Part shown: in pieces, positions 1 through 63,418 of the stretch
Position numbering within the stretch: the stretch's first letter is position 1
Layout of the letters: each line of letters begins with the position of its first letter
From: Candidatus Latescibacterota bacterium
GTDB taxonomy: Bacteria; Latescibacterota; UBA2968; SICM01
Assembly: GCA_965217865.1 (NCBI GenBank)
Contig: CBDCJO010000001.1
Location: forward strand, 576,001 to 640,000
Direction: 5' to 3'
Length of the DNA: 64,000 nucleotides
The notes under the pieces: model-generated
Databases searched by the model: none
What the model was told of the DNA's origin: nothing
What the model saw: the letters and a program-made list of their open reading frames with translations, nothing else
Translations under genes and position numbers: made by a program

Positions 1-435
1 GGCCCATCTTCATAGATCCACCCGGAACCTCGGCCCGTAAGATCTACAACGTGAACGGTCCCTTCTTTCTCGTCGGACACGTGAAGTGCAAACCAGCTTT
101 CGTCACGTGACCAGGGGAATCGACCAAATCGGTGACCATTTGACTCGGGCAGGAGCGAGGATATTCTTTGACGTTGAAGATCAAATAAATGCACTTTCTT
201 AGGCTTGTTAAGCTCCTCCAGGTTTTGCCGATGAAATGCAATCAGGTCACCGGATGGGGACCAATTTGGAAACCTGTCCACACTGTCCTTCGATGCGGTC
301 AATCTATCAAGTTTGCCGCTATCCAATGTGAGGTGAAAAATGTCAGGTGGCCGTTTATTCAATTGCTCGGTACTGTGCTTTTCGTAGGCAGAAAACACGA
401 GGCTTGTGCCGTTTGGCGACCACTGGCTGAACCCC
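1..435 (-). pseudogene. TolB/PD40-like beta-propeller protein fragment (runs off window edge, 5' part missing)
   Basis: Manual minus-strand translation, not in the ORF track: FSQWSPNGTSLVF...PDIFHLTLDSGKLDRLT...PNWSPSGDLIAF...FPWSRDESWFA. Repeated WSPxG-type motifs; frame open to position 1. Confidence 0.7.
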
Positions 436-1758: not shown

Positions 1759-2196
1759 CTACTTGCCACGACGTTCCCATGCCCGGCCCAAGGCCCGAAT
1801 ACTTTCCCAGATCGATCTCCATGAGCTAGGCTGGGTGTCTCTCCTGGGCACTTCGCCTGTTTCCGTTTGGTAGTAGCTGTTGCGTCTGGTCCAGGCCTTT
1901 TGCCGCACCAGCGCGATTTCAGCTTCCGAAAAGCCGCGCGCCCACCGGACGATTCCTTCATCGATCCAGTAGTGTGACCTGCACGAAAAACTCCAGTTCC
2001 CGATGGACGGCTCCAGGGAGATCGTTCTCCCGTCATAGGTGAGCCTCCACTCGACGGGGCCAAGAGGGGTCACCACCTCCTCCCCGCACCCGCACGCACA
2101 CCGGTGGACCACCGTGCCGAAACGCATCGACACATACAGAACACCGTCATCCAGCTGTTCCGGTATGTGATCCACGAATTCGTTGCGCAATCTCAT
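1759..2196 (-). CDS. DUF6527-family protein (peptidase-like component of Bub-type ubiquitination operons)
   Basis: HRCACGCGEEVVTPL...SLEPSIGNWSFSCRSHYWI signature; start overlaps the ThiF stop (ATGA). Confidence 0.85.
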   Translation of the reverse strand: MRLRNEFVDHIPEQLDDGVLYVSMRFGTVVHRCACGCGEEVVTPLGPVEWRLTYDGRTISLEPSIGNWSFSCRSHYWIDEGIVRWARGFSEAEIALVRQKAWTRRNSYYQTETGEVPRRDTQPSSWRSIWESIRALGRAWERRGK

Positions 2197-3383
2197 TGGC
2201 TATCGTCAGCCTGCCCCAGCATCCTGTTGCTCATGTGATTTCCGTCGATCGTGTAAGTGCTCCTGTCCTCTTTGCCAAGGTCCATGTAAAACCCCCGGTG
2301 CTTCTTCCACCGGATTACCGCGAGGGCCGCATTCAGCGCGTTCAGTTCCACGATCTGCACGTTCCTCTCGTACTCGCCGACGTCCCGCAATCCGCCCTCA
2401 CCGCGTCGTACCGCCGAGCTCTTCGGCGTCTCACAGAAGCTCGTTCTCACGACCCCTACCAGCTTGTCGTCCGTCTTCTCGATGCCCATTCCCACGTCGA
2501 CGAACGGCACTCCCATCCGGTCCAGTGTCGGCAGCAGCCACTGCCTAGTTTCGTTGTCGTCGACGGCGACAAACACGAAATCGAGGTCGCCAAGCACATT
2601 GACGTTATCGGCCTCCACATCGAATTCGTGCGCGACGACGCCGCTCCTTATCTTCGCGTACCGTTCGCTGTACAGTTGAGCCTTGGTCGGTCTCTTCTCG
2701 AGCTCCTCGGCTGTCGTCGGACCGGGCGCGCGGAACGCGTTGTGCTGCTCGAACCGGTCGCCGTCGAACAGATGGATCTCCGCGACGCGTGTCTTGCTGA
2801 CGTAATCCAGAATGTACGATCCCGTACCTCCGAGCCCGATTATGCCGATCCTGTCTCCGGACAGTCTCTCGTTCAACCGGGTTATCCCAGCGCGGCTCGA
2901 CGCAGTTTCCATGAACACGAAAGGGTCGTTCGGGTCTGCCGACAGCACCAGTTTCCCCGCGCAGGCTATCGCTCCGGGGTCTATTCGTTTTGCACACCGT
3001 CCAATCACCTGCGCGTAGTGCGTCAGCTTGTGATGGTAATCCTCGTACTTCCCCGCCACCGGCCTTGCCGAGAAGTAATGGTCGACCCATAGGCCTTCGG
3101 CGAGCTCTTGGCGTTGGCTGCTGTTCCGCAGAGCCTCGATCGGCGCACCGCGGTCGTCGCAGGGGTACTCGCCCGCAAAGTACATCGTGTGATCTGGCGG
3201 CGGCCCCGTTTCCGAACCGTCGACGGCTAGGGGACAGACGAGCTGACCGTACTTCACGGTTCGCTCGCTTGTAACGTACGGGACGCGATGCAGCACCAAA
3301 TGCCCGGAGCGGACCTCTATCTCGTAGCCGTCCTCGACGAGTCGCTTAAGGTCCTCCCTACGACTGATCAGTTCTTGTGACAT
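2193..3383 (-). CDS. ThiF/E1-family adenylyltransferase with N-terminal E2-like (DUF6791-type) domain
   Basis: GIIGLGGTGS nucleotide-binding loop, DGDRFEQHNAFR, FVFVAVD; N-terminal domain LVLHRVPYV...DHTMYFAGEYPC. Confidence 0.9.
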   Translation of the reverse strand: MSQELISRREDLKRLVEDGYEIEVRSGHLVLHRVPYVTSERTVKYGQLVCPLAVDGSETGPPPDHTMYFAGEYPCDDRGAPIEALRNSSQRQELAEGLWVDHYFSARPVAGKYEDYHHKLTHYAQVIGRCAKRIDPGAIACAGKLVLSADPNDPFVFMETASSRAGITRLNERLSGDRIGIIGLGGTGSYILDYVSKTRVAEIHLFDGDRFEQHNAFRAPGPTTAEELEKRPTKAQLYSERYAKIRSGVVAHEFDVEADNVNVLGDLDFVFVAVDDNETRQWLLPTLDRMGVPFVDVGMGIEKTDDKLVGVVRTSFCETPKSSAVRRGEGGLRDVGEYERNVQIVELNALNAALAVIRWKKHRGFYMDLGKEDRSTYTIDGNHMSNRMLGQADDSQ

Positions 3384-4203: not shown

Positions 4204-4533
4204 ATGTCAGAATTTGGAGAGAGGCTGAGGAGAGCAAGGCAGAATAAGGGGATGCTGCAGGAAGACTTAGCACAGGCAATGGGGCTAACTCAGGCATCGA
4301 TTTCCCAGTTCGAGAAGGGACAAAGGACACCCACCCCGGAAAATATCCGTAAATTAGCTCAAATACTGGGGGTGAAGGAGGAGGACCTAGCAGGCAAAGA
4401 TAAGGGGAATTTCGAAAGGGCATTGTTAATGCGAAATATGCGAGATTTGTCCCCTGGATCTCTCAGTAGGATCAACGAGTATGTGGAGCTGATAAAGGAG
4501 AGTGAAAGAGCAAGAAGACGGAGAAAGAGATGA
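4204..4533 (+). CDS. XRE-family HTH transcriptional regulator (CapH-like)
   Basis: FGERLRRARQNKGMLQEDLAQAMGLTQASISQFEKGQRTP; divergent from the Ubl operon. Confidence 0.9.
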   Translation: MSEFGERLRRARQNKGMLQEDLAQAMGLTQASISQFEKGQRTPTPENIRKLAQILGVKEEDLAGKDKGNFERALLMRNMRDLSPGSLSRINEYVELIKESERARRRRKR

Positions 4534-5405
4534 TTTTGAGACGTACAATAGCGGCCTACGCCTCTCAGCTACGTGAAAACATGGGAATCGGTGAAAACGC
4601 CGCCATTGGACACCTCGTTCATCATATCAAAGAAGCGGGATATGAGTATCTTGAGGAATCCTTTGGTGATGAATTTTCAGGATTTTCGCAATCCCTTGGT
4701 GGAGGCAAGTATCTTATAGGATTCAATCGTGAGCACCTCTGGAGCATCAAATTTCAAAGATTCACTTTGTCTCACGAATTAGGGCACCTTACTATCCCGG
4801 AGCACCGCAGGATATTGGACAACACAGGCTTGCATCGGTCCAAGAGTGAGTTTCAATCCCAAGATCCGATTGAGCGGGAGGCGGATTACTTCGCCATATG
4901 CTTTCTGACTCCGAGGAAGTCCTTTCAAGATGCTATGAAACACAAGGAATACACAAAAGACACCATCTTTGGGCTCTCCGAAAAGTTTGGGATATCGGCC
5001 TATGCTACTATCCTTCGGTTCATAGAACTGACAGACCAGTCTTGCACTTTGATCGTGAGTAACAGCACTGGAATGATTGAATACGAAAGACGGTCCAACC
5101 GGATGAAGGAATCCTGCCAACAGAACTTTTTGGCTGGAAAGAAAATTAAGGAGACAACTCTTACTTTTGACTATATCAAGGGCCGGAAAGGGGAGAACAG
5201 CTGTACCGTCTCTCTTCGGGAATGGTTTGAGGATCTGCCTGAAGAGATTGAAATCGATGCGACCGAATCTGTAATCGACCTGGGATATAACAACAAGTAT
5301 CTGACCTTGTTGACTCCACATGTTACGGATGTGGACGAATATAGTAGGGACTGGGAATCACCAAGATCATTCCCAAAACACGGAGGTCGACCTAGTACCT
5401 ATTGA
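4530..5405 (+). CDS. ImmA/IrrE-family metallopeptidase (CapP-like)
   Basis: RFTLSHELGH (HExxH) and EREADYFAICFL; translationally coupled to the HTH gene; last codons come from the IS630 end. Confidence 0.9.
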   Translation: MILRRTIAAYASQLRENMGIGENAAIGHLVHHIKEAGYEYLEESFGDEFSGFSQSLGGGKYLIGFNREHLWSIKFQRFTLSHELGHLTIPEHRRILDNTGLHRSKSEFQSQDPIEREADYFAICFLTPRKSFQDAMKHKEYTKDTIFGLSEKFGISAYATILRFIELTDQSCTLIVSNSTGMIEYERRSNRMKESCQQNFLAGKKIKETTLTFDYIKGRKGENSCTVSLREWFEDLPEEIEIDATESVIDLGYNNKYLTLLTPHVTDVDEYSRDWESPRSFPKHGGRPSTY

Positions 5406-48424: not shown

Positions 48425-48990
48425 ATGGACAAGCGGAGCCTCTCGGAACGCGACATCTGCACCAGGTTCATCACGCCCGCCTTGCGAAAGGCCGGATGGG
48501 ACGAGATGACGCAAATCCGCGAGGAAGTCAGTTTTACCAAGGGACCCATCATCGTGCGTGGCAAGCTGGTCAGCCGGGGCAAGGGCAAGCGTGCCGACTA
48601 CATCCTCTACTACAAATCCAATATCCCGATTGCCGTGATCGAGGCCAAGGACAACACCCACGCCATCGGCGACGGCCTGCAGCAGGCTCTCGACTACGCC
48701 ACCACGCTCAACATTCCTTTTGTTTTCTCTTCCAACGGCGACGGCTTTGTCTTTCACGACAGGACAGGAATGAATGCCCAAACGGAAGCGACCCTCGGCC
48801 TCGACGGTTTCCCGATCCCCAGCGATCTGTGGACCCGTTACCGGGCCTGGAAGGGCCTGACAGCGGAAGCTGAAGAAGTCTTCCTTCAGGACTATTTCGA
48901 CGACGCTAGCGGCAAGGCGCCACGCTACTATCAGGTCAACGCTATCAACGCTGCCATCGAAGCCATCGCCAAGGGGCGCGAACGTATCCA
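48425..48990 (+). pseudogene. hsdR: Type I restriction subunit R (EcoAI/EcoEI-like) N-terminal fragment
   Basis: LSERDICTRFITPAL, RADYILY...IAVIEAKDN, SSNGDGF, PRYYQVNAIN; breaks before Walker A. Confidence 0.9.
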
Positions 48991-51785
48991 CCGCGCGCGT
49001 AGTCCCGGAGGAGGATATGGGGAGGCGGACTCCCCGAAGCGAAGACTCTCTCGTACACACACGTTGCCAGAGTACCGACTGCGACAGGATCATGGCAGCG
49101 CATGGCGACCCCGTACGCCACGGCGTAGACGCGCTCGGCCACGTACGGATCGTCAACATCAGCGAACTGCCCAACGAGTCGGACGACAGCCGCCATGCGG
49201 TCTGTCAGAAGACTCACGAGAGCCGTCGTTGCGCGGTCACGCAAAAACCGATTCGAGGTGGTGAGCATCCACGAGAGCGCGACGGCGCACAGGTCAACGG
49301 CCTCGTCATCGATTGACGTGCTCGGGTTCAGCGAAGACGCCCAATCCACAAGCCTGTCGACGGCGCCCTGCGTACGATACGCGTGGTGAAGGTACACGCT
49401 CCACCGCGCGTCACGATCCGGCATCGCGTTTCTCCGAAGCAACCGATCGAGAAACTGCGCATTAAGCGGATGTCCAGGTAACGTAGCTACGGTGAGCAGC
49501 ACGTCGAGGGTGTCGCGCCAATCGTCCTCGCTTCGGCACAGCGTGTTCAGCGCTCGGCGCGTGTCCTCCGAGAAAGCTGAGTATGTGCGCCAGACGAGGC
49601 TCTGCCGGAACGCGTCCCCAAGTCCCCAACGATCGGCACAGGTTGGAGCGACAGAGATGAGTTCCTGTCCGGTCTGCTCGGGAATCTGGATGCATAGGGC
49701 CTCAAGAAGACCGGGCGAAACGCGGTGCTTATTGTCGCAGATGAACGCCAGACCTCCCACCGCCGCAAATGCAGAGGCGGGGTCGTTGACGTCCAGGTAT
49801 CTGCTCAGCAAGCTCCTGGCCACGAGGTGGTCGGCAAAGCGCTCGTATGCAATGAAGACTACCACCTCGGGAGTCGCGTCCTGCGATGGCACCACTTCCT
49901 CAACGAGGACACCTTCTGCGACCAGTCCCTGGTAGAGAGATCGCCCGAAGTCGCGTCCGGGAAGAAAACGGTTGACGACTTCTACTGCCTTCGCCAGGGT
50001 AAGCCAAGGATCGCCGGAGTCGAGGATCACCTCTGCAACAGCTTCTACGGCCTGTCGTACGAGCGGCGTCCGGGAATCGAAATCAAGACTCGACGCCAGC
50101 CGCTCGTTGACCGCCCTGAGATACAAGTCGAACACGGCTGTGATGCCTTGAAAGCCGCGAGGAAGGCGACGCGCCCCATTCGCATTGAGACCTTGGCACA
50201 ACGTCTTGAGAAACAGAGGGTTCTGGAACTCCGGCGCAAGAAGCGGCGTCGATGGAAGCTCTAGGCCGTAGTGAACGAAGAACGTCTTGGTGGCGTCGTA
50301 CTCATGCCCCTTGAATCCTGAGTGCGTCACGACGGTGGCACGGGAGTGTACGTCGGCGGGAAGGATGAACTTCTCGAAAGACGAGCGGACGGTGAGCACC
50401 ACGCCAATCCAGGGCGAGCTCTCCAAGGGTGCCAGAAAGGCACCGAGATGACTTGGCCAAATGTTCCGTCCGGCGCCCTCATTGATCGCGTCGATCATCA
50501 CCAGTGCTCGTGAGCCCGCGGCCTGCGCTACGGCTTCGAGCGCGCCGACGAACTCCTCTGCGGACAGACTGGACAGGTCCAACTGCTGCAGCACTTGGGA
50601 CCAAGGTACATCGTTGCTCACGAAGCGTTGGCCCATAAGCAACACCGTTGGTCGACCTGCAGAGACGCGCTGGCGTGCAAGGTCACATAGTAAATGAGTC
50701 TTCCCAGTGCCTGCTGCGCCTCGGAGGACCATCAAAGGGCTGTCCGCAATCTGATCCGCATGTACGAACGATTCCCGCGCCACTTCGAGCTCGGATATGA
50801 GATGCAGGAGCCGAATTCTGCGATCTCGAAACGGGTTACTCCTGTAGGAAGATCGGCGTTTCTTCTTGTCCTTCGCTTCTGGCTTGGCCTCCAACTCTCG
50901 TTCGCGTTGCTCCAGGAGTCGTGAGAGCTCCTCGCCTGCTTCTTCTGCAGCGTGGATTTGCCCCGATATGGCTCTGAACGGGAGCGGACCCGTTGCCTGC
51001 ACATCGATGGCGCCTATCGCGGTGAGGACCGCCTGAACCTTCGACGGCACGACGGCCAGCGCAGCATCAACAGTCGGGTCGGCCGCGCCCTCTGAATACT
51101 CGACCGCTCTCAATTTTCTTCGGATTCTCCGGCCACTAGCCTTCTCCCGGTCGAAGAAGCGATCGGTGCGTCCGAACGCTTCGAACTCCCACATGATGGG
51201 CAGGTCAACGCGGATCTCGGGGGTGTAACGAGGTCCTGCGGTCCGCAATGCCTCGTCGAGCCTTGCCGTAAACCATGCGGGATCGAAGCCTCGAACATCG
51301 AACCAGAATCGGACACGCCCGATATGTTCCGGTCGGGCTAAGCGTTCGAGCAGCTCATGGCTGCCCCAATAGATGAATTCGACCGTCATTCCGCGATCGG
51401 ATGCCCACCCACTCCACTTCGCGACGTGGTCATCCCAGCGCTCTTTCGCCGACTTTCGGCCCTCAATCCGCGCATCTGCTCGATCTACCGGCACGCAGAC
51501 GAAATAGCGGACTAGCTTTGGATGCTTCTCGAGTGCCGTCTTGATGCTGCCGTCGATCTGAGACCACTGCGAATCCCCAAGTCCGTCTATGTACTTGGAC
51601 TGCCAGACCCACTCGGCGCCGTCACTCAGGACTGCATAGCACTCAACTCCAGCGTCCGGAGTCCCTTTTCGCACGAACGTTGACCCGGAGGGCCTTTCCG
51701 CCCGGGCAAGCTGGGCGCACAGCTCCTCGAAGCCCTTGTCTCGTCCACCCTTCAGGGGCCTGATACTGTTCCAGTCAAGCGTCAT
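48945..51785 (-). pseudogene. avs2: AVAST type 2 (Avs2)-like nuclease-STAND NTPase, C-terminally truncated
   Basis: N-terminal FEELCAQL...DAGVEC...WQSKY nuclease, GAAGTGKT, MIDAINE, SNRFLRDRAT, DDPYVAER; ends at LLRDYARG where it collides with the hsdR fragment. Confidence 0.8.
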
Positions 51786-52170: not shown

Positions 52171-52760
52171 ACGGATGGCACATTGATCTTCCGAAACGCG
52201 GGTGCGCTCTTCTTTGCCAAGAACGTGCGCCGCTTTTTTCCGCAGGCCTACATCACCTGCCTGCTGGCAAGGGGCACTGACAAGGTATACATCCTGGATC
52301 GCAAGGATTTCGACGGCGGGATCGTGGCCGACATCGAGGACGTCCTGCGTTTCGTCGAGCGCAATACTCGCACTGCGTATCGCATAGAGGGACTCAAGCG
52401 TGAGAATGTCCCGGAGTATCCGACCAACGCCCTGCGGGAGGCGATCACGAATGCGGTGATGCACCGCGATTGGTTTGTTGACGGGGCCAACGTCTTTGTC
52501 GAGATCTACGCCGACTGCATCGAGGTTGTGAGCCCGGGCAGCCTGCCTCGGGGCTTGTCGCTCGCCGATCTTGGGAGCAAGAGTGTTCGTCGGAACGCGT
52601 TGATCGCCGACCTGCTCTCGCATCGACTTCATAGAGAAGGCGGGCACCGGTATCCGGCGTATCCGGAACGAGACTCGCGCGCAGGGTTGCCCCGAGCCTG
52701 AATTCGAGGTCAACGGCTTCTTCACTGCCACCTTTTGGCCCAGCCCTGAGGTGCGGGCAA
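52171..52760 (+). pseudogene. AlbA/Schlafen-associated ATP-binding (HATPase-like) protein fragment
   Basis: EYPTNALREAITNAVMHRDW, IEVVSPGSLP, RRNALIADL; frameshifted before EKAGTG. Confidence 0.8.
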
Positions 52761-52936
52761 GGGCGCGAAGGCGAGCGCCCGTTCCAGTTCCGGATTCTGT
52801 AATTCGTCTTGTACTGACGGCTGACTCGGCTCGACTTCCCTGCGGCCAGGACGTGGCTCCTCCCATCTCCGTCTACTTCTTGGGCGAAGGGGGGGCCGGG
52901 GAGGCGGCGAAGGATAAGGTGCACATCTGCTGAATC

Positions 52937-54187
52937 TCAGCTTAGGCGAGAAAATCCAGGGAAAAAGAGCGTATCGGGAAATGCAATCCGATCGTCAGGC
53001 CGAAGACGATTCAGCTTTCTCGAGCGCACCTTGCCATCAGGGTTCAAGATTTCAATTTCCCTTTCCCGAAAGAGCTTAATGACTGTCAGGTCGAGATCCG
53101 AGAATCTAGCGGTTGTCCTGTTTGCAAACATATGCCGCATCGTCTCTACGGTGACCGGAGTTTCGGATGCCAAAGCGAACAGTTCACTTGGCATTGAGTT
53201 CAGAAGCTGAGCCTGCACCTCCTGGGCATCAAGCCCTGCAAAATGAAACAGAGGCAGTGTTTTGGAGTACAACGCTTCCCAGCCCAGCATCCCGAAATCG
53301 CCGGGACCATAGTGTTCGAATGTATTAGAGATATCCCAATGGCGCTGGATCATCACATCTCGCGCAGTGGGGTGTCTTGACAGGTGGAGGAACCACAAGG
53401 CACGTCGTGACCCTTGGGGTCGCACGAAGAAGGGCGTATCGTAGGTCGCGTGCGTTACGGCACGAATATGGTCACGCAACGTTCTCTGAACGAGGGCTCT
53501 TCCGCCATATCCATCTCTCTGCTCGACCAACTCGTGCATTCGTGATTCTGTCAATTCGAGCGGAGCAACTGCCTTGACTAGCAACGGTGTTTTCGCAAGG
53601 TGGTTCACGAGTGCGTCTGCGGCAAACGTAAGTATGACCTCCGCCGCCGGAAGTTCACGAAAAATCCGAGCAATGAGTTCCAGCTTCACCTGTGAAAATC
53701 CGGTCTGGTCAAGGAGAAATATCGAGCGGCCGGCCCGAGGCTGACGGCGGCGAATTTCCGCGATGATGTCGTCAATCGCTTCTTCGAACCGTTCGTTTCT
53801 AACGACGATCGATTCATCATCGACTCGGAACCCGCGTTCATTCAGAACTCTCCTGAGATGATCCACATGAGCGGATTCCTTGTCGACAAAGTAGTATTTG
53901 CAATCCAAATTTAGGGGCTTTGTGCGCTTCCGGTTCAGTCTGGTCTTTGCTGCTTTGGATTCCTCCAGCATGATCAGGGGCGTACCGGACACGATCTCAT
54001 CGTCGTCCCGGAACGTGCCTCCTCCGGCAAAGCCATCGACAAGATCGAGTTTGAATTCTTCGCGAAGAGGACTGACGTTCAGCCTGTCAAAATAGGCGCG
54101 AAGGTACTGCCGCAAAACGTCGAGCTTTGCCTTGCTGTGCGCCTCGATCGGAGGCGGCGATTCGTCAGGATACCACCTGAAATCCAT
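52937..54187 (-). CDS. tcmP: Three-Cys-motif partner protein TcmP (methyltransferase-like fold plus winged HTH)
   Basis: HSKAKLDVLRQYLRAY, LVDGFAGGG, FLLDQTGFS; overlaps the DUF5131 gene. Confidence 0.85.
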   Translation of the reverse strand: MDFRWYPDESPPPIEAHSKAKLDVLRQYLRAYFDRLNVSPLREEFKLDLVDGFAGGGTFRDDDEIVSGTPLIMLEESKAAKTRLNRKRTKPLNLDCKYYFVDKESAHVDHLRRVLNERGFRVDDESIVVRNERFEEAIDDIIAEIRRRQPRAGRSIFLLDQTGFSQVKLELIARIFRELPAAEVILTFAADALVNHLAKTPLLVKAVAPLELTESRMHELVEQRDGYGGRALVQRTLRDHIRAVTHATYDTPFFVRPQGSRRALWFLHLSRHPTARDVMIQRHWDISNTFEHYGPGDFGMLGWEALYSKTLPLFHFAGLDAQEVQAQLLNSMPSELFALASETPVTVETMRHMFANRTTARFSDLDLTVIKLFREREIEILNPDGKVRSRKLNRLRPDDRIAFPDTLFFPGFSRLS

Positions 54188-54926
54188 AATCTCTTGTCTC
54201 CATCAAGTAGAAGGGCATGGCGTTATGCTCGATGCCTTCGAGCATCCGTCCGCCCGATTTCGGCGTCCGGCCGCCCCATTGCTTGAAGAAGAACGCGACT
54301 CCTTCACGCTCGCATACATCCCTGATATTAAGCACCCAACTTCGTTCCATCGGGCGGGCCTTGGGGCCACTCTCGCCGCCGACGATGACCCACGAGATTC
54401 CTTTAAGGTTGAGATCTCGCACAGGCCCCAGCAAAGGTTCTATGGAAAGAAAACGAATCGGAACCGGAGCCTTTTGGAGGTGCCGAATTCTGCTGGTCGC
54501 TGTGTGATCTTCAACAGACACGCCGCACCAGATATGTCGCGGAGCGACAGCCTGACCGTATCTGCGTTCGAGGTAGTGCTTCATGAGCGCGCTTCGCTTC
54601 GTGAGCACCTGAAATATGTGCCGATCGGCCGCCTCCATTGTGTCGAAAACTCGATCGATCAACTCCGTCGATATCTCCTTATGGAAGAGGTCGCTCATCG
54701 AATTGACGAAGATCATTCGCGGGCGCTTCCATGAGAGCGGTTGGGAAAGCCGCTCCGGGTGCAACGTAAGGTCGAACCCCTTCTCGAATGGATGTCCGGG
54801 CACGCCGCGGAAGCGCTCGGCTAGGCGCTCGGCGTAACAGTTGTCACAACCGCGCGTGATCTTAGTGCAACCGGTTACTGGGTTCCAGGTTGCGTCGGTC
54901 CATTCGATGGCAGATTCTTTACTCAT
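54165..54926 (-). CDS. DUF5131 (phage Gp37/Gp68) radical-SAM-like protein
   Basis: IEWTDATWNPVTGCTKITRGCDNCYA (Cx6Cx2C), FVNSMSDLFH, LTKR, WVIVGGESG, FFFKQWGG. Confidence 0.92.
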   Translation of the reverse strand: MSKESAIEWTDATWNPVTGCTKITRGCDNCYAERLAERFRGVPGHPFEKGFDLTLHPERLSQPLSWKRPRMIFVNSMSDLFHKEISTELIDRVFDTMEAADRHIFQVLTKRSALMKHYLERRYGQAVAPRHIWCGVSVEDHTATSRIRHLQKAPVPIRFLSIEPLLGPVRDLNLKGISWVIVGGESGPKARPMERSWVLNIRDVCEREGVAFFFKQWGGRTPKSGGRMLEGIEHNAMPFYLMETRDYGFQVVS

Positions 54927-55079
54927 ACGAACAATCCGTGATCCAGTCTCGCTGTATCAGATCGCCGATGCTTACTGGTAGTTTATACCAGCGATCATGG
55001 CCTCAGCGATGAGGCAAGGCTGTAGGCGCCTCGGCCGTGCCGTGTGGTTGAAACCATGAACTGGGAGCAGATGCCACGC

Positions 55080-57704
55080 TCATATCTCAAACACCTTCAG
55101 CACCTCGTCGCCATAGTGGTTGATGACCTTCACGGCGAACTTGCCCGTTTCTGGCTTGTCGAACGCTCGGCTAACCGTGCTGTACAGACTGCTCCAGGCG
55201 GCTTCGTCGATCTCCGCCCGTAGCGCCCGTTTGAGATTGGCATACGGTTCTTTGGCCCCTGTGAAGTAGGCGTGGCGCACGAAGAAGCTCTCGCCGTTGT
55301 AATTACTGTCGATGAACCAGCAGGCGATGTCGTCGGTGGAAGCGTTGCGGATCTGACCGGTGGTCGGGTCGTACACGTCTACTCCCTTGATCCCGATCAC
55401 AATCTGCCCGTTCTTCTGCTTCTTGATCTCCACGTCCGGCTCGCCGAAGACCATGAACAGGTTGCCTGCGCCGGTCTTTTTGAGTAGTTCGTCGCCCATC
55501 GCCATGTCGGGGTTCATCTTGGTGGGAAGCACGGTCAGGCTGCCATAGCGTTTCACCTCTTCGGCAACATGCGGGTCGAAGGCGAAACCGCAGACAACAA
55601 GCATGTCAAAGCCTACTCCCTGCACCGCTTCCTTGGCGGCTTCCTTCACTTGTTGCGGGCCGACGGTGCCATGCTCGGGGCCGATGGAGACCGCGACACG
55701 GCGGCTCTTGGCGTCGGCGTCGGTATATTCGCCTGCTGCGTGCAGCCACGCTCCGGCGTAGGGATCGAGCCGGTCGAAGCTGAGCCGTTCGCTCTTGCGG
55801 GTATTCTGCACGCCCGCCTTCTTCAGGTTCTCCAGAATCATGGTGGAGAAGTCTTGCTGCTTGCGGCCTTCTTGCTCGCTGACCGTGCCATCCTGATTCT
55901 CGTCGGCCGTGGAGAGCACGCGATGCGGTGAAAGACTTTCCACCGAGAATGGCCCGCACACCCGCACGCACTTGTTGTCCTCGTAAGGTTGGTCGTAGAG
56001 CATTTCGGTCTCGGCATGGCGGGCGATGGCAGCATCGATCTGCTCGCGCGTCATGCCTTCCTTGATGTCCGGGTTGTTGGCGATCGATTTGAGCGTGATG
56101 TGCGGTACGCGCTTGTAGACGAAGCCCTTGCGGATGTCGTGCTCCGTCTTGTATTCGGGCGGCATCTTGCCAGTGAGGTCGGCCTCCTTCTTGATGCCTT
56201 TGGGGGAATCTGCCAGCAGGTAGTACGGGTACCTTGCTGCCATCAGGCGCGTGCGGGCCAGTGCCAGGGCGACGCGACTGGTGTCGCAGGTGATCCAACG
56301 TCGGCCCCACTGCTCGGCAACGTAGGCAGTCGTGCCGCTGCCACAGGTCGGATCGAGCACTAGGTCGCCGGGATCGGTGGTCATAAGGAGGCAGCGCTGA
56401 ATTGCCGTGGTACTTGTCTGAACGACGTAAATCTTCGGATCAGATCGACTTTGAACTCCACCAACATCCAGCCATACAGAATTCAGTGGATTGACAGGAA
56501 AATCGTCGATGAATCGCACATACCTAAGAAGGTTGCCCTCGGCGACAATGCGATTGCATTTCATGAGTTGAGTCATACCATCGGTAGTCGTCTTCCAATG
56601 CAATCCACCTGGACATTTGAAATCATGCCCGTTAAAAGTGATGACACCGCTGCCTGTCGCAGTTTCTCCAGCAGAAGTGATCTGGTCTGTACTGAAAAAT
56701 CGAGAGCCTGCGGGCACTAACGATGGGGTTGCTTTCTCTTCAGGTGTAAGTCGCCTGCGGGAACCATCAGCTAACTCCACGCTTTCATAACGGGCAGCCC
56801 TCGCTTCTCCCCGCTCCTTCTCGGAGTAGATCTGGCGATACTTCACACGCTCGCGGTCTTTTGCGTACCAAATGATGTAGTCACAGATTTGTCCGAGCAA
56901 CGTTGAGCCTCTGCCCGTCGTTGTCGCAAACGCTATCAAGCCTGCAAAGTTCTGACTTCCAAACACCTCATCCATCACGTTCCGCACCAGATGCACGTTC
57001 TCATCGCCAATCTGCACGAAGATGCTGCCCGTCTCGGTGAGTAAATCGCGGGCCACGACCAGTCGGTCGCGAAGGTAGGCCAGATAGGAGTGGATGCCAA
57101 GCTTCCAGGTGTCGCGGAAGGCGCGCACCTGTTCGGGCTGGCGAGTGGTGTCCTGTGCCTTGCCGTCTTTCACGTCGCGCTTGCGGGTGCTCACCTGCCA
57201 GTTGGAGCCGAACTTGATGCCGTAGGGCGGGTCGAGGTAGATGGCCTGCACCTTGCCCTTAAGCCCTTCCTTCTCGGCCAGTGAGGTCATCACCAGCAGC
57301 GAATCGCCCAGGATGAGTCGGTTGGACCAGTTCTGTTCGTGGTGGTAAAAGTCGATCTTCTGCGCGAAGTTAGCCGGGCCACCGTTGAAGTCAGCGAAGA
57401 GATTGGCCTGGTCGCCACCGGGCTGTTCGGTGCGAGGCAACGCGTCGATGATCGCCTGCGGGTGAATCTTCTCCTGGATGTAGACCGGCACCACGGGGAC
57501 GGTGAAATCTTCCCGGTCCTGTTCGTCCTTGCCCTTCCAGACCAGTTGCGGGTCGAGCGAGGGATCGCGCGGGTAGAGCATCGTCTTGGGTACCAGTTCT
57601 TCATCGGCCACAAAGTCGCGCAGTTCTTCGGTGGGAATGTTGGCGCGCTTGTCCTTGTGGCGGATGGATTCAACTTTCTTCTGGGTGTTCTTTTTCTTAG
57701 CCAT
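55080..57704 (-). CDS. Site-specific adenine DNA methyltransferase (type III Mod-like, beta class)
   Basis: YLDPPYGIKF (motif IV) before VLDPTCGSGTT (motif I); lower-GC variable TRD at about 56450-56950. Confidence 0.92.
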   Translation of the reverse strand: MAKKKNTQKKVESIRHKDKRANIPTEELRDFVADEELVPKTMLYPRDPSLDPQLVWKGKDEQDREDFTVPVVPVYIQEKIHPQAIIDALPRTEQPGGDQANLFADFNGGPANFAQKIDFYHHEQNWSNRLILGDSLLVMTSLAEKEGLKGKVQAIYLDPPYGIKFGSNWQVSTRKRDVKDGKAQDTTRQPEQVRAFRDTWKLGIHSYLAYLRDRLVVARDLLTETGSIFVQIGDENVHLVRNVMDEVFGSQNFAGLIAFATTTGRGSTLLGQICDYIIWYAKDRERVKYRQIYSEKERGEARAARYESVELADGSRRRLTPEEKATPSLVPAGSRFFSTDQITSAGETATGSGVITFNGHDFKCPGGLHWKTTTDGMTQLMKCNRIVAEGNLLRYVRFIDDFPVNPLNSVWLDVGGVQSRSDPKIYVVQTSTTAIQRCLLMTTDPGDLVLDPTCGSGTTAYVAEQWGRRWITCDTSRVALALARTRLMAARYPYYLLADSPKGIKKEADLTGKMPPEYKTEHDIRKGFVYKRVPHITLKSIANNPDIKEGMTREQIDAAIARHAETEMLYDQPYEDNKCVRVCGPFSVESLSPHRVLSTADENQDGTVSEQEGRKQQDFSTMILENLKKAGVQNTRKSERLSFDRLDPYAGAWLHAAGEYTDADAKSRRVAVSIGPEHGTVGPQQVKEAAKEAVQGVGFDMLVVCGFAFDPHVAEEVKRYGSLTVLPTKMNPDMAMGDELLKKTGAGNLFMVFGEPDVEIKKQKNGQIVIGIKGVDVYDPTTGQIRNASTDDIACWFIDSNYNGESFFVRHAYFTGAKEPYANLKRALRAEIDEAAWSSLYSTVSRAFDKPETGKFAVKVINHYGDEVLKVFEI

Positions 57705-60702
57705 GTGCGACTTCCTTTGTTGGCTCTACGTACAGCTGTTTCAGAAAGTCGCGGATGAGATTCTGTGCGTCCCACGGGTCGGCGACTTCGATAAACGCCC
57801 AGCGACCGAAACCGCCGTGATTGTTGATAGCCGGGACCCACAGCGTGCGCGCCGTGGCTATCTTGGCGGCCTTATCTTTGTTCTTTTCGCCGGTCACTTC
57901 GACGAGCAGGTTCAAGAGGTCATCCGAGCCGCGACCGTCGTCGATGCTAGCGATGAAGTCGGGAATGTAGTTCTTCTCCTCGCCGTTTAGCGTGTAGGGA
58001 ATGGCGAAGCTGAGGTTGTGATTTTTGACGTAGCGGACGACCTCGGGCATGTTTTCGAGGGCTTCGGCCATTTTCTGCTCCCACGAGTCGGTATCGGCGA
58101 CGACGTGGGAGATGTGACACTTGTCGTCGCGGGTCGCGAAGACCGGCCGCGTAGTATCGAAATCCACGTAGCGGGTGGAGCCGATAGTGTCATACGGGCG
58201 GAGGATGGGCTTGAGCGCGGCCGTGGCGGCCGTCGAGGCTACGATGGCCTTGTAAATACGGTCCGCTGCGTCGTGCGCGAACTCGATCAGCAGCAGCAGT
58301 TGCGGGAAGGTATTGTCCTTGAGCGTGACACGTTCATTGAGCCAGCGTTTGGCAATGCCGAGCAGTTGCGGGAAGAGCCATGGCTTGTCGTTCTCATCAT
58401 CGTCGCGGAAGTATTTTTCCAGCGTGAGCTTGGCCAACAGGAAGGCGACTTCGTTCGGCCGGCGGCGCTTGAGATCGTCGAGGGTGTGGATGCTGGATTC
58501 GCCGACAATGGGCGCGTTCTCGGTCTTGGTGGGGATGTCGGCAGTGGAAAGCGTGAGCTTGGATTCGTCGGTGAAGGTCGCGGTCAGTCGTTCACCTGCC
58601 ACGTCGTAACGGTAGCCGAGCAGCCGGGGAAAGGTGATCTCGCAGTCGATGCGGCTTTCCAGGGCGCGGACGCGGGTGGGCAGCGGTCCGGGCTTGGGGT
58701 CCGTGGTTGCGCCGCTGCAGGGGATGAAAGAAAACGGCACGCCATAAACTTCGGCGTATTCGGGGATGAGATGCCCCTTCTCGTTGGCGCCATAATGCAC
58801 GCGCCGCAGGGCACGCCCGACCACCTGTTCGCATAGCAATTGCGTTCCGAAGGCACGCACGCCCAGAACATGGGTGACGGTGTTGGCATCCCAGCCCTCG
58901 GTGAGCATGGAGACGCTGACCACGCACTTCACGTGTTCGCCGAGCTTGCCGGACTTGCCCACGGTGTTCATGACCTCACGGAGAAGATCTTCGTCAGTCA
59001 GGCTTTCCGCATCACGGCCGGGGAAGCGGGTGCGGTATTCGGCCTTGAATTCCTCGATTTCTGGGGCGGCGATCTTCTTGAAGGCACCGCTCATTGATTC
59101 CCCGGATTCGAGTTGCTGGCTATCTACCAGGACGCTGTTCGGACGGTGTAGCCAAGCTCCATTGCCGTCGTCGTTGCGGAAGATGGGTAGTTGCCCGGCC
59201 TGGGCGATGCTCTCTTCGCCGATCTGTCTTTCCCATCCGGCGATATAGTCGAACACCAGCTTGGAGACGCTGGTGTTGTTGCAGACGACGATGAACACCG
59301 GCGGCGCGATGCCTCGGGCGCGGGCTTCGGTGTTCTGCTCCCACAGGCGGTAATACTTCTCGTAGTTGCCGTAAAGACTGAGCAGCGCACCTTGCAGCTC
59401 GACAGGGAGCTTCGGGTCGCCCCCTACATCATTGGGTTTGCGGCCTTTTTTGGGTAGATGCTCGCGGATGCGGAGCCACAAGTCGCGGTAAGTGGGCTGC
59501 TCGCCCGTCATCGAGTCGTCAGCCACAGGCACGCGGGGCACTTTGACGACACCGGCCTCAATGGCGTCAATCAGCGAAAAATCCGAGACCACCCACGGGA
59601 AAAGCGTGCCTTCGGGATAGCCCGAACCGCGCAGAAAAAACGGCGTGGCCGAAAGATCGTAAATGGCCTTCACTCTGATTTTGGCCTTCACGGCCTCTAG
59701 GCCGGAAATCCAGACGCGAGCCGCTTGGTCGCGTTGTTTGGCTTCAACGCGATCATCGCCGATGAGTTTTTCATCCTCGCCGTCGGGTTTGCGGCGGTAG
59801 CAGTGATGCGCTTCGTCGTTGAGAACGATGATGTTTTTCTTGGCACCCAACTCGCGACAGACGCGGCGCACCATCTGGTTGGGAGTTTCGGTAAACGGGC
59901 TTGGCTGTCCATCGGCGAGAATCGACTTTGTGATCTTTCCGGCGGCGACCCTCTCGCGCAGTTGAAAGGCGTGGTAGTTGGTGATGAGGATTTTGGCCTG
60001 TCCGAGCTGGTCCGACAGTTGGGTCGGTACAATGTCACGCCGGCGGTAGTAGTTGTCCGGGTCGTTCGGCAACAGCACGCGTAGCCGGTCGCGGATGGTG
60101 ATGCCGGGCGTGACGATCAGGAAGGTGTCGGAAAAGCGGGCGTCCTGCGGGTTGGCGCGTTTGTTGAGAGTGTGCCAAGCGATGAGCATGGCCATGACGA
60201 CGGTTTTGCCTGAGCCGGTTGCCATCTTGAACGCCGTACGCGGCAGTCCGGGGTTCGATGTGTCGTTCGCCTCGCGTATCGCGTTCTCTATCCATGCATC
60301 CCCGTACTTCTTTGCCACCTCGGCAATGTAGATGGCGGTTTCAAGGGCTTCGTTCTGACAGAAGAATAGTTTCTTCTCGCGGTTGGGATCGGTCCAGTAG
60401 GCAATCAAACGTGCGGTAGTCGTCGTCACACCTACGTAGCCGCCCTTGCGCCACAATGCAACGCGGCGGCGGATGTCGTTGACAAGCTTGTTCTCTTCGA
60501 TGCGGTCTTGTGTCCACTCCGTGTCGAACTGAAGCTGTTGGGACCCCTTCTTCTTTGACTTTGCGATGGGGACGAAGCACGAACTGGTCCGGCGACCGTC
60601 GCCGATCTCGTCGGTGATGCCCTCGTCGCTAAACCTGAAATGGCGGGTCGGCTCGTCGAAAGGCGAGTTGATGATCGGGTTCTCGATGACAACTTGGTTC
60701 AT
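57697..60702 (-). CDS. Type III restriction Res-like helicase/endonuclease (BPTD_3080-type)
   Basis: IINSPFDEP, MATGSGKT, LNDEAHH, SATP, MLTEGWD, C-terminal YIPDFI...LVEVTG; overlaps the mod start. Confidence 0.9.
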   Translation of the reverse strand: MNQVVIENPIINSPFDEPTRHFRFSDEGITDEIGDGRRTSSCFVPIAKSKKKGSQQLQFDTEWTQDRIEENKLVNDIRRRVALWRKGGYVGVTTTTARLIAYWTDPNREKKLFFCQNEALETAIYIAEVAKKYGDAWIENAIREANDTSNPGLPRTAFKMATGSGKTVVMAMLIAWHTLNKRANPQDARFSDTFLIVTPGITIRDRLRVLLPNDPDNYYRRRDIVPTQLSDQLGQAKILITNYHAFQLRERVAAGKITKSILADGQPSPFTETPNQMVRRVCRELGAKKNIIVLNDEAHHCYRRKPDGEDEKLIGDDRVEAKQRDQAARVWISGLEAVKAKIRVKAIYDLSATPFFLRGSGYPEGTLFPWVVSDFSLIDAIEAGVVKVPRVPVADDSMTGEQPTYRDLWLRIREHLPKKGRKPNDVGGDPKLPVELQGALLSLYGNYEKYYRLWEQNTEARARGIAPPVFIVVCNNTSVSKLVFDYIAGWERQIGEESIAQAGQLPIFRNDDGNGAWLHRPNSVLVDSQQLESGESMSGAFKKIAAPEIEEFKAEYRTRFPGRDAESLTDEDLLREVMNTVGKSGKLGEHVKCVVSVSMLTEGWDANTVTHVLGVRAFGTQLLCEQVVGRALRRVHYGANEKGHLIPEYAEVYGVPFSFIPCSGATTDPKPGPLPTRVRALESRIDCEITFPRLLGYRYDVAGERLTATFTDESKLTLSTADIPTKTENAPIVGESSIHTLDDLKRRRPNEVAFLLAKLTLEKYFRDDDENDKPWLFPQLLGIAKRWLNERVTLKDNTFPQLLLLIEFAHDAADRIYKAIVASTAATAALKPILRPYDTIGSTRYVDFDTTRPVFATRDDKCHISHVVADTDSWEQKMAEALENMPEVVRYVKNHNLSFAIPYTLNGEEKNYIPDFIASIDDGRGSDDLLNLLVEVTGEKNKDKAAKIATARTLWVPAINNHGGFGRWAFIEVADPWDAQNLIRDFLKQLYVEPTKEVAHG

Positions 60703-61542
60703 ACTGGAACGCCCCCGGATCGCATAAAGCTCTCCCCCCTACTTCCCCCCCCTTAGCAACGGCCTTCTCGTCGCCTTCTTCGGTCGAACCTACTTTCCGT
60801 ATCGATACCGCGCCATAGCGTTCCTCCCCGCGATCTCCCCTCTGGCGTAGTGGGCTGAGCATCGCTGGAGACTGCCACCTGCCCACTTGCTGTGCTTCGA
60901 GGATCGATGCGCCGGACCTGATGAGGCTCTGGCGGATCCGACGCGTCGGCAGTACTCATTTGGGAACCTCCGCGAGCGTGTCACGCAAGGTGTTCTTCTC
61001 GAGCATCAGCCAAAGCGTAACAGACGGACAGGCCCGGATGGGGTGGCGTCTTCATCGGCATATCAGAGTCCTCCTCACTAGTGTCGTGTCCCGGAAATTC
61101 CTTCAATAATTTCTCGGATAGCGGTCTGTAAACCCTGAACGGAGCGAAGGATCTCTATGTCCCGAACTATCAGACAGTTGGTGCGTTCTTCGCTCGCTCT
61201 CGATCAAAATGACAGCCACCGCTACGTTTTTGGAGACTTTCTTTTGTAAGGAACTTCTGGGACACGACACTAGTGGTAATCGATCAAGTCCATTGTCGTA
61301 GGCATGCACCCCTCGAAGCGGAACACGATGCGTCAGTTGCCGGAACCAACCGACCAGTAACCGGCAATGATTACCCTTCAATGCAGCCGGAAGCCCGGCA
61401 GGGTCCGTGCTCATGGGCTCCGTTGCTTCGACAAGACGTGCCAGGGGCCGTTCGGCAGGCCCTCGCGACGAAGGCAAGTCATTGGGCCGAACGGAATATT
61501 CTCATGGAATCGAGCTGCCGGCCCAGCGCGCGGTGAGGCAGG

Positions 61543-62484
61543 TCAGTCCTGACGACGCGAGCTAGCCTCAAGTCGCTCAAACAAACGACCTATGGCCTGC
61601 TCGGCTAGGGCGTCGGAACTCAGTAGCGTGCCATTCGACTTCCAGCACCAGCCAAGTGCTTGAGACCGCTCGGGCTTGTAACGCACCTCGCTGATCACAG
61701 GAGGGTCCACAAGGTAGCGGCAGCGGCGATTCTCACCTGGGAGAATGATGTTGCCCTCCATCTGCTTGACCGAGAGAAACGAGTCTTCCAGCGAATACCT
61801 GACAACAAGCTGCACATATAATGAAGCCTGGGGCGAACGAATTCCGACTGCGCCATCTGCGGCCGCCCATTGCAGGCCAAGCCCTGGCGCTGCGCCAGCT
61901 GCTTCTGTGGTAAGAGCTAGCAAGGCCGTCACCAGCCTTTCACCCTCTGCCGTCACTTGTTCAACTCCGCACCGATCTCTCCTAAGCGCCTCGGTTTCTG
62001 CCGCAAACTGCTGAGCCTCAGCCGCCCTTCTGGCTTTCCCTGCGATCGTCTCCTTAGTGAAGACGCCACCGAGCTCTTTCACTCGCAGCTTGATTGCGCC
62101 GACCACTTGGTCGATTCCAAAATCCTCAAGATTGAATCTGATCTTTCGATCCGGCACCCATGGCGGCACCGTCGACGTTGAGTCGACCATGACGAACAAC
62201 AAAAAATCAGGCCCATCACTCAAAAACCTGTCTGTGATGGCCTCCGATTCAACGCGCGTCCATGGCGTGTCTCCCCAGCCGTCTCGGTACAAGACGACGA
62301 CGAGCCGCGCGGCATCGCGAAAGGTCTTCTTGAAGGTTACCAGCCCGTCCGTACCCGCGACCTCAGTTTGACGGCTAGTGAATTCGAAGACGCGAAGTCC
62401 TGATGCCAACAAATCTCTTAGATGTCGAGCGAGGCCGTCGTCTTTGGCAAGAAAAGAGATTGCGACGTCGTACTCGTAGTTCAC
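61543..62484 (-). CDS. TIR-domain protein with unknown C-terminal domain
   Basis: YEYDVAISF, LVVVLY, WTRVE (WxxxE catalytic Glu); GGAGGG RBS. Confidence 0.85.
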   Translation of the reverse strand: MNYEYDVAISFLAKDDGLARHLRDLLASGLRVFEFTSRQTEVAGTDGLVTFKKTFRDAARLVVVLYRDGWGDTPWTRVESEAITDRFLSDGPDFLLFVMVDSTSTVPPWVPDRKIRFNLEDFGIDQVVGAIKLRVKELGGVFTKETIAGKARRAAEAQQFAAETEALRRDRCGVEQVTAEGERLVTALLALTTEAAGAAPGLGLQWAAADGAVGIRSPQASLYVQLVVRYSLEDSFLSVKQMEGNIILPGENRRCRYLVDPPVISEVRYKPERSQALGWCWKSNGTLLSSDALAEQAIGRLFERLEASSRRQD

Positions 62485-62819
62485 TGGCTGACCCTCCGAG
62501 ATTTCATGACTTAGCCGTTCGGGGAACGGGCGCAGCCAAAACGGACGGGACCCGGGCCGGCTCCGGGGAGAATTGAGAGAGATTGGGGGGCAAGGTCAAC
62601 GAACAGGGGAGCACGAGGCACCGGGGAGTTTTTTCCTCCCTCTCTCCCTCCTCTCTCCCTCCTCTCTCCTCCTTCTTTCTCTCTTTTCTCCCCCCCGCGT
62701 TTGAAATAAAAGCCGGTCCTGGGCCGGATTCAGGCCCCTGTGCGGGCTTCCGCGAGAGGATGCGCCGCGACGCAGGTATTCTGCCGGCCGGTATGGAAGC
62801 CTGGAGATTGCTCGCCAGC

Positions 62820-63418
62820 TAGCGGCACAGGGCAATCCATATAGTCGCAGCCGCGTGGCTGATTCGATGCGCCGCCAGGGCCTGCGGTCGAAAGTGCGCC
62901 GGAAGTTCGTCGTGACCACCGATACAAAGCATAACCTGAAGGCCTCCCCGAACCTGCTGAATCGGGACTTCGACGTGGATTGCCCCAACAATGTGTGGTC
63001 CAGCGATATCACGTATTTGCGCAGCCGGGCGGGATGGCTGTTTCTGGTGGTATTCCTGGACCTGTTTTCCCGCCGTGTGGTCGGGTGGTGTGTGAGCACC
63101 TCATTGGGACACGAAACGGTGCTCAAGGCCCTCTCCCGCGCAGTATGGCAACGCAGGCCGGAACCTGGGCTGATGATCCACTCCGATCGGGGCATCCAGT
63201 ATTGCTGCGAAGGCTTCCGTGTAAAGCGCAGGTCGCATCGGGCCCTGGCCCCTCCCGAACAGCAGGCTGTCTTGGATCTGTTGCACTGCGAACGGTTTAT
63301 GGATAAAGCCCCTCCTCAGGTCTGGGCCGAGTTGCTGGATGAAGGCCTGTATTTCTGCTCACTCAGCACGATGTATCGCATCCTGAAGGCACACGAGGAA
63401 GTCCGGGAACGCCGAAAC
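62820..63418 (+). mobile_element. Chimeric IS3-family fragments
   Basis: 62820-63220: NLLNRDF...PNNVWSSDITY...IHSDRGIQY; 63221-63418 repeats 26300-26497. Confidence 0.88.

Follow-up and report, generated by a model that had tools for sequence, protein, structure and literature searches.

Five undisrupted open reading frames (ORFs) lie on the same (minus) strand at positions 52937..62484 of a 64,000-nt stretch of a Candidatus Latescibacterota genome (assembly GCA_965217865.1, contig CBDCJO010000001.1, positions 576,001 to 640,000; hereafter the window). They encode a TIR-domain protein, the Res and Mod proteins of a restriction-modification (R-M) locus, a DUF5131 protein and a TcmP protein, and the question raised by this block is whether its genes work together. 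The original prediction read them as a candidate for one undescribed multilayer defence system. Our analysis suggests instead, with a probability of about 0.8, that three modules, each mobile on its own, stand together by chance in a recombination-rich defence island: Res-Mod (module 1), DUF5131-TcmP (module 2) and TIR (module 3). Recombination would have placed the three modules in a row, and the proximity of DUF5131-TcmP to R-M genes would be that of island cargo rather than of a Res-Mod subunit.

Distribution of the five genes in other genomes

Three collections were searched: 29 TcmP-centred loci, from a scan of one genome per species; 78 Res-centred loci, from the best 80 of 582 confirmed metagenomic stretches; and 168 whole genomes of the phylum. 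The order of the five genes was found at none of the 29 TcmP-centred and none of the 78 Res-centred loci. A profile of the window's TIR family matched nothing in either set (48 of the 78 Res loci hold at least 2 kb upstream of res), so the co-occurrence of TIR beyond general defence-island clustering that a single system would entail was not seen there. The TIR protein itself was absent from the 167 other genomes of the phylum, and no plasmid carrying it was found in a plasmid search. The TIR-family profile was positive in 3 of 401 genomes of another phylum, and Res, Mod, DUF5131 and TcmP were not found at those three loci.

DUF5131 stood just upstream of TcmP at 28 of the 29 TcmP-centred loci, the 29th showing a weak partial match, which confirms that the two are habitual partners. 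Neither gene followed mod at any of the 37 Res loci with at least 1 kb of sequence past mod, and recurrence of the res-mod-DUF5131-tcmP order was thus not seen. The window's Res/Mod family occurred at two TcmP-centred loci (L015, and L033 in pieces), at both of them head-on to the pair, unlike the order in the window, and L028 contained only a short, weak Mod-like match 8 kb from TcmP. Within the phylum, Res was present in 62 and TcmP in 42 of the 168 genomes. Besides the window's own genome, 22 held both, four of them on different contigs, and the two were adjacent in one (G018), where res is directly followed by the start of TcmP at a contig end; the next-nearest distances were 38.8 and 43.6 kb. 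The separate distribution of the three modules is a direct observation, as are the intact genes, their family membership and their motifs. The GC content at third codon positions sets the modules apart too (0.58, 0.66 and 0.61 for TcmP, DUF5131 and TIR versus 0.73 and 0.76 for Mod and Res, respectively).

Junctions within the block

The 840 bp between the TIR stop and the res start are a patchwork that includes fragments of other loci and into which a multicopy element has been inserted. The element, of approximately 200 bp (61071-61279), recurs across the genome in about 17 further, nearly complete copies of 89-98% identity. It interrupts a stretch (60944-61083 and 61268-61460) that is contiguous at C2:629408-629734 of the same genome, and 61459-61770, including the 3′ end of the TIR gene, recurs at C2:1783158-1783463. 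The element is non-coding and resembles a miniature inverted-repeat transposable element in size and spread. A 41-aa ORF at 60981-61106 presumably resembles the start of HigA-type antitoxins.

A boundary was also found between mod and DUF5131, which are 153 bp apart. In the closest cassettes (L006, L007 and L021, with 91, 83 and 76% DNA identity, respectively), homology to the window begins at the tcmP stop and is lost at 55005-55015, which is 65-75 bp beyond the mod stop; the 91%-identical cassette has neighbours other than those in the window. The leader of the cassette (Table 1) contains a -10-like hexamer (about 54982-54987) within a 6-5-6 inverted repeat (54975-54991). We infer that this leader acts as the cassette's own promoter, from which DUF5131-TcmP would be transcribed. 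The multicopy element and foreign fragments in the TIR-res gap, together with this cassette-specific leader after mod, speak against an uninterrupted operon. Promoter and terminator scans of 52700-62900 yielded no more sites than shuffled sequences (2 versus 3.1 and 9 versus 10.2, respectively), and the promoter-like site of the leader was not listed by the strict promoter scan of this region. A close likeness of the inverted repeat was seen in the leaders of 3 of 27 relatives, and a weaker one in several others; the genome contains one exact occurrence and five occurrences with a single mismatch. We considered it as a possible SOS-type operator.

The cassette was also found apart from mod. 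A second copy in the same genome (Table 1) has unrelated flanks and no mod, and its TcmP is truncated and runs into unrelated coding sequence. Upstream of this DUF5131 copy, on the opposite strand (L001:10500-10700; C2 at about 340500-340700), lies what we take, by eye, to be the 3′ end of an MT-A70-type methyltransferase gene. In public run X17, one contig is identical to 54730-55039 except at one position, and its 691 further upstream letters were not placed on the window; we read it as probably the same cassette with another neighbour. For each of res, mod, DUF5131 and tcmP, contigs from RNA libraries (X17 and X18) covered some of the gene, whereas TIR was almost uncovered; most of these matches showed many differences. 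No inference on expression is drawn from them because such contigs cannot show transcription or co-transcription. In the DUF5131 tree, the relatives closest to the window's protein come from several phyla, the nearest being L006.

Two further arrangements of these genes were observed. At L128:7822-9805 and L129:7957-9940, TcmP is 71-72% identical to that of the window and DUF5131 is 58% identical and of another clade, and the partners of these cassettes appear to have been swapped. At L127:2901-10138, a HEPN (LA2681-like) gene lies between two DUF5131 genes of different clades that are separated by 4 kb.

These junctions bear directly on the multilayer reading, in which R-M would form the first line, DUF5131-TcmP would add a second mark and TIR would serve as an abortive back-up. 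Five intact, co-oriented genes amid broken ones, with a short gap between mod and DUF5131 and intact catalytic motifs, are what such a system would look like. A TIR family missing from all the Res and TcmP loci and from the rest of the phylum, adjacency of Res and TcmP in one of 22 phylum genomes, an order unseen elsewhere, a multicopy element and foreign pieces between TIR and res, and a cassette with its own boundary and leader are not, and we regard one five-gene system as highly improbable. An assembly chimera of similar repeats was also considered. The genome contains many short duplicated pieces, its contamination estimate is 9.3%, and the whole block is spanned by no contig listed from four public runs; against this, the genome consists of two long contigs without N, all five frames are open, and the four runs hold at least half of the stretch's sampled words. 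We give a chimera a very slight chance, and the modules would remain separate even if the junctions were wrong.

Table 1. Positions of the genes and other features of the block (window coordinates, or residues for parts of proteins).
Feature	Position	Strand	Description
TIR	61543-62484	-	313 aa, GTG start; module 3
Res	57697-60702	-	1001 aa, NF046055; module 1
Mod	55080-57704	-	874 aa, PADLOC MTase_III; module 1
DUF5131	54165-54926	-	253 aa, PF07505; module 2
TcmP, long form	52937-54187	-	416 aa, TIGR04474; module 2
TIR-res gap	60703..61542		840-bp mosaic
Cassette leader	54927..55039	-	common to relatives with other neighbours
Duplicated segment (DUF5131 + TcmP 1-290)	53317..54963	-	1,647 bp, 99.9% identical at G000:C2:338828-340474
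TIR protein parts	residues 1-141; 147-198; about 171-308		TIR domain; long helices; CyaY/frataxin-like fold (predicted model)
TcmP parts	residues 1 to about 290; 318-402		RlmJ/Trm1-like class I methyltransferase fold; three-helix/two-strand domain (predicted model)

Gene calls and surroundings of the block

All coordinates of the five intact, co-oriented genes were re-found, with overlaps of 8 bp (res/mod) and 23 bp (DUF5131/tcmP). The gene labels of the original prediction were borne out by family matches for Res (NF046055, 1208 bits; equivalog cut-off 800), Mod (PADLOC MTase_III, E 1e-285), DUF5131 (PF07505, 315.7 bits; cut-off 28.9) and TcmP (TIGR04474, 190 bits; cut-off 53). The TIR_2 match of the first gene was below the cut-off (24.3 versus 28 bits), and its label is carried by the TIR fold in the predicted model (Z 15.3, root-mean-square deviation (rmsd) 2.7, 133 aligned; predicted local distance difference test (pLDDT) score 93.5).

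That nearly everything else in the region is broken was found to be true of the near flanks: Avs2 ends at 946 aa, whereas the profiles span approximately 1,300-1,580, a piece of HsdR is present, and the transposases on both sides of the block are fragmentary. It does not extend to the unbroken region at 32-44 kb of the window, which contains long ORFs of metabolic families.

Several observations concern the wider island. At 48425-51785 of the window, the truncated Avs2 (AVAST type 2) gene meets an EcoAI-type HsdR N-terminal fragment head-on near 48990. A DUF6791 and ThiF protein and an IrrE-like M78 peptidase are encoded at the start of the window (2193-3383 and 4530-5405), which suggests a further defence-type cluster. 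Just outside the window, at L002:7873-10349, an XhoI-family endonuclease and an Eco57I/TaqI-like methyltransferase make up a further R-M pair in the island.

Association of DUF5131-TcmP with R-M loci

The tie between DUF5131-TcmP and R-M genes, which had been proposed earlier, is real. Using nine R-M-type queries with self-hits removed, a match was found within 4.2 kb of 13 of 28 cassettes versus 5% of random sites, an approximately ninefold enrichment calculated from loci that are not independent (three are from one genome) and from control sites in one genome, the one studied here. Scanning of ORFs of at least 180 aa within the same distance typed the neighbours as Type ISP (7 of 28 loci), Eco57I-like (3, in one genome), MmeI, N6 methyltransferase, BREX-type and Type III. 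The association is thus real but generic, the neighbours being of many unrelated types. The commonest neighbour of the cassette clade is a Type ISP gene (about 1,100 aa) lying head-on to tcmP at nine loci from several phyla (L007, L014, L018, L021, L023, L026, L030, L128 and L129), and the two stop codons are often within 20 bp of each other.

The pair was also found inside R-M loci. Among the 54 informative Res loci, in which the res end and the mod start are both present, seven (six distinct) carry TcmP followed by DUF5131 between the res and mod genes of the window's Res family. The TcmPs in this slot are short (276-299 aa in the five scanned); in L044 and L082 a single gene of the pair was seen, at the end of the contig, and in L066 DUF5131 lies upstream. 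The slot is empty at 21 of the 54 loci, contains GmrSD at 5, and otherwise holds AAA ATPases, toxin-antitoxin, Fic, RhuM and other genes. In a tree of 65 Res proteins, which leaves out loci covering fewer than 800 residues, the eight TcmP-bearing rows are scattered, with seven changes forced by starred branches. Because the cargoes are varied or absent and the rows are scattered over the tree, we regard the slot as a cargo site that the pair has entered or left repeatedly. The window's pair belongs to another subfamily, with a long TcmP, the opposite gene order and 23-26% identity to the short TcmPs, and its DUF5131 is three starred branches away from that of the slot group.

As for novelty, DUF5131-TcmP already matches the PADLOC candidates PDC-M30 and PDC-M41, so the description of the block as an undescribed system does not hold for this pair. 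DUF5131 matches PDC-M30B and PDC-M41B over nearly its full length (E 3e-102 and 2e-101, respectively), and TcmP matches the A components weakly (best E 1.6e-16, profile positions 10-174 of 372). Both the window's cassette and the candidates are two-gene cassettes in and beside R-M and BREX loci; they differ in that the window's TcmP is long and divergent and has DQxG at motif IV, that the PDC-A models cover its N-terminal half only, and that the window's order is DUF5131 then tcmP. With respect to the TIGR04474 and PF07505 pair, the two genes are adjacent, exceed both cut-offs and include the Cx6Cx2C motif, and nothing essential differs. In the accessible part of the source publication, 145 PDCs are reported from within BREX, DISARM and Type I R-M loci, and they are called untested; the names M30 and M41 have no occurrence in its main text (bioRxiv 10.1101/2024.01.29.577857).

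This association is the ground for a different reading, in which DUF5131-TcmP is a portable R-M add-on that acts at or next to its neighbour's methyl mark and supplies a second mark or a hypermodification, its position after mod has been selected, and TIR is unrelated. The enrichment near R-M genes, the variety of those neighbours, the repeated entry into the res-mod slot and the combination of a methyltransferase fold with a radical-SAM motif are all consistent with such a role. However, approximately half of the cassette loci have no nearby R-M gene, none of four annotated plasmid regions lists R-M genes, the slot also takes GmrSD, AAA ATPases, toxin-antitoxin and Fic genes or stays empty, and the Type ISP neighbours are head-on to the pair. 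Independent defence genes are, in addition, described in the accessible text of the PDC publication as generally embedding in R-M loci (bioRxiv 10.1101/2024.01.29.577857). We consider the add-on reading quite unlikely.

Our preferred reading, a chance row of three modules, has points against it as well. The ninefold enrichment is one, and the occupied slots are another: repeated recruitment by the Res-Mod family is real, given the 7 of 54 loci and the scatter over the tree, and could be selected. Read-through into DUF5131 could occur because the four downstream genes are co-oriented and no terminator-like site was listed by the scan in the mod-DUF5131 gap. In L028 and L126, long-TcmP cassettes have as neighbours TIR genes of another family, unrelated to the window's TIR and accompanied by SLOG and ThsB-like partners. 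Finally, TcmP is without the DPPY of amino-methyltransferases, and its residue match to RlmJ, described below, is inferred from fold and position in a predicted model.

Predicted chemistry of DUF5131-TcmP

A literature search that did not cover subscription papers found no activity for DUF5131-TcmP, in line with the original statement that the pair has no established biochemistry. The suspected role in nucleic-acid modification is retained as the likeliest chemistry, based on a methyltransferase fold and the Cx6Cx2C motif. DUF5131 (phage Gp37/Gp68) contains C20-x6-C27-x2-C30 near its N-terminus, invariant in 36 rows. According to the accessible text of PMC9477430, DUF5131 corresponds to RadicalSAM.org Megacluster-5-2, with the motif CX6CX2C, and spore photoproduct lyase belongs to the same megacluster; the window's DUF5131 has the three cysteines, and its assignment to this class is made from sequence.

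Sequence searches of solved structures with TcmP and DUF5131 gave nothing useful, and no solved relative of DUF5131 was found by sequence. In the predicted model of TcmP (pLDDT 91), the fold matches LPL1258, an RlmJ homologue, RlmJ itself and Trm1, which are tied (Z 14.8, 14.3 and 14.1, respectively; rmsd 3.2; 209-228 aligned, 214 for RlmJ). Across 127 rows, K21, D51, G55 and D160 are invariant and position 102 is acidic in 126; D160 is followed by Q in 126 rows (DQYG in 69, DQCG in 20 and DQTG in 19). Catalysis by RlmJ, the 23S rRNA m6A2030 methyltransferase, requires K18 and D164, as given in the accessible part of the publication (PMC3814359). TcmP would share with it a conserved Lys in the first helix and an Asp after strand 4 (K21/D160 versus K18/D164), and differs from it in having 10% identity, DQxG for DPPY and an extra C-terminal domain, with Trm1 being equally near. 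Of the features of N6-adenine amino-methyltransferases, the class I Rossmann fold and motif I are present in TcmP and motif IV, (D/N)PP(Y/F/W), is absent. We do not file TcmP as RlmJ because DPPY of motif IV is replaced by DQxG, although the two may still work alike. The C-terminal domain appears winged helix-turn-helix-like by topology only, that is, from the order of its predicted secondary structures.

In the mechanism that we propose, TcmP would bind S-adenosylmethionine (SAM) and the base via the Lys/Asp pair, with the C-terminal domain holding the DNA, and DUF5131 would use a [4Fe-4S] cluster on Cx6Cx2C to produce a 5′-deoxyadenosyl radical altering the base. We give about even odds that module 2 acts chemically on nucleic acids and thereby counters mobile DNA; a base change by the two enzymes would be its likeliest form, every step of it predicted from motifs and models. 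A complex prediction for DUF5131 and TcmP gave a score of 0.00, which speaks neither for nor against binding.

Both families are widespread, with at least 7,999 members of DUF5131 (7,999 of the 7,999 scored candidates passed) and 1,555 clusters of TcmP at 50% identity; the window's clade, with about 55-92% TcmP identity, occurs in several phyla. In S. meliloti, a TcmP gene beside hna is among the NolR-upregulated genes (PMC12445080, accessible text). Ophion, which appears in the literature on radical SAM proteins and phage defence, is a different system from DUF5131-TcmP, judging from the accessible part of its description (bioRxiv 10.1101/2025.09.30.679545).

The Res-Mod pair

Res belongs to the BPTD_3080 family (NF046055) and has superfamily 2 helicase motifs (Walker A at 161, DEAH at 296 and motif VI at 626), and its C-terminal PD...EVTG nuclease-like motif is typical of this family; its match to PADLOC REase_III is weak (E 9e-10). 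Mod is an N6/N4 DNA methyltransferase in which DPPY (158) precedes the SAM-binding motif (451). The start of mod followed res at 54 of the 78 related loci, most of the others ending too soon. Type III R-M systems form a Res2Mod2 or ResMod2 complex, recognise an asymmetric site, methylate one strand and cleave DNA in an ATP-dependent manner, and their canonical gene order is mod then res. The window's pair has in common with this type (EcoP15I) the linked, overlapping Res and Mod genes with intact helicase, nuclease and methyltransferase motifs, and differs in its order, res then mod. It is thus predicted to be a Type III-like methylase and ATP-dependent nuclease: Mod would methylate a base in the recognition site, most likely N6-adenine, and Res would cut unmethylated DNA with ATP. 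No paper naming BPTD_3080 was found in the literature search.

Other copies of these genes were observed in the genome. A second full-length Mod, 41% identical, lies beside a short Res fragment only (L003:7506-10130; G000:C2:302538-305105), and further broken Res copies are located at C2:141 kb and C2:389 kb. A stretch located 11 kb away repeats 69 bp of the mod 3′ end. An integration scar was considered; we read the repeat as a remnant instead, because it is 94% identical, adjoins a multicopy element and has different downstream sequence.

The TIR protein

The catalytic WxxxE motif of the TIR protein is intact as originally described, with E79 of W75-x3-E79 invariant across 69 TIR rows and a clear TIR fold in the model. 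The C-terminal domain resembles 4jpd (CyaY/frataxin-like; Z 10.3, rmsd 3.0, 102 aligned), and two further members of the CyaY/frataxin fold match it at Z 9.5-9.6. The combination of TIR domain, helices and CyaY-like domain was found in at least 79 full-length relatives. Atlas neighbours of the whole protein include TIR_2 and PF27176 clusters, and the best atlas matches of the C-terminal part are PF27176 (TIRY4lF; 0.81), which we take as a lead only; in addition to this likeness to TIR and TIRY4lF proteins, the C-terminal fold of the window's protein is CyaY/frataxin-like. Longer fusions of the C-terminal part were sought and none was found, which is weak evidence, and sequence searches of solved structures with the TIR family gave nothing useful.

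With bacterial TIR NADase effectors (AbTir, SPARTA TIR-APAZ and Thoeris ThsB) the protein has in common the TIR fold with an invariant Glu. It differs from partnered TIR systems in that the block shows no ThsA, Argonaute, STING or SAVED partner. As regards Thoeris, the window's TIR has no linked ThsA, models of ThsA and ThsB did not match any of the block's five proteins, and PADLOC models matched only 1 of 69 members of the TIR family, weakly (ThsB, E 8e-4). On balance, we read module 3 as a lone one-gene sensor-effector that would cleave nicotinamide adenine dinucleotide (NAD+): the CyaY-like domain would detect the trigger, the helices would oligomerise and the TIR domain with E79 would cleave NAD+, as far as a predicted model can indicate.

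The CyaY-like domain has the fold of an iron chaperone, and a link to the Fe-S cluster of DUF5131 was considered and rejected because the TIR and DUF5131 genes do not co-occur. No paper connecting CyaY with TIR proteins and phage was found outside the subscription literature. Separately, a Thoeris-like set (TIR_2, SLOG (LD_cluster2) and a ThsB-like TIR) lies approximately 1-4 kb from long-TcmP cassettes at L028:12429-15158 and L126:4237-6863.

Implications

As a five-gene system, the block has no significance beyond being an example of defence-island cargo. A minor candidate in its own right, for defence by a single gene, is the TIR protein, whose C-terminal fold is CyaY-like. A bolder view, which we hold to be doubtful, is that DUF5131-TcmP is a plug-in DNA hypermodification module, in which an RlmJ-like enzyme with a changed catalytic motif and a Cx6Cx2C radical-SAM enzyme would produce a base modification so far undescribed for cellular DNA, recruited repeatedly by all R-M types and adding to or guarding the methyl mark, with TIR as a separate one-gene sensor-effector absent from PADLOC 2.0. 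The approximately ninefold R-M enrichment and the several separate entries into the res-mod slot would then reflect this recruitment.

Overall, DUF5131-TcmP is very widespread and its chemistry is what matters here; this locus does not reveal that chemistry but helps to test it. With candidate catalytic residues (K21 and D160 in TcmP; C20, C27 and C30 in DUF5131), a clean boundary and a likely promoter of its own, the pair should be easy to clone and test alone.

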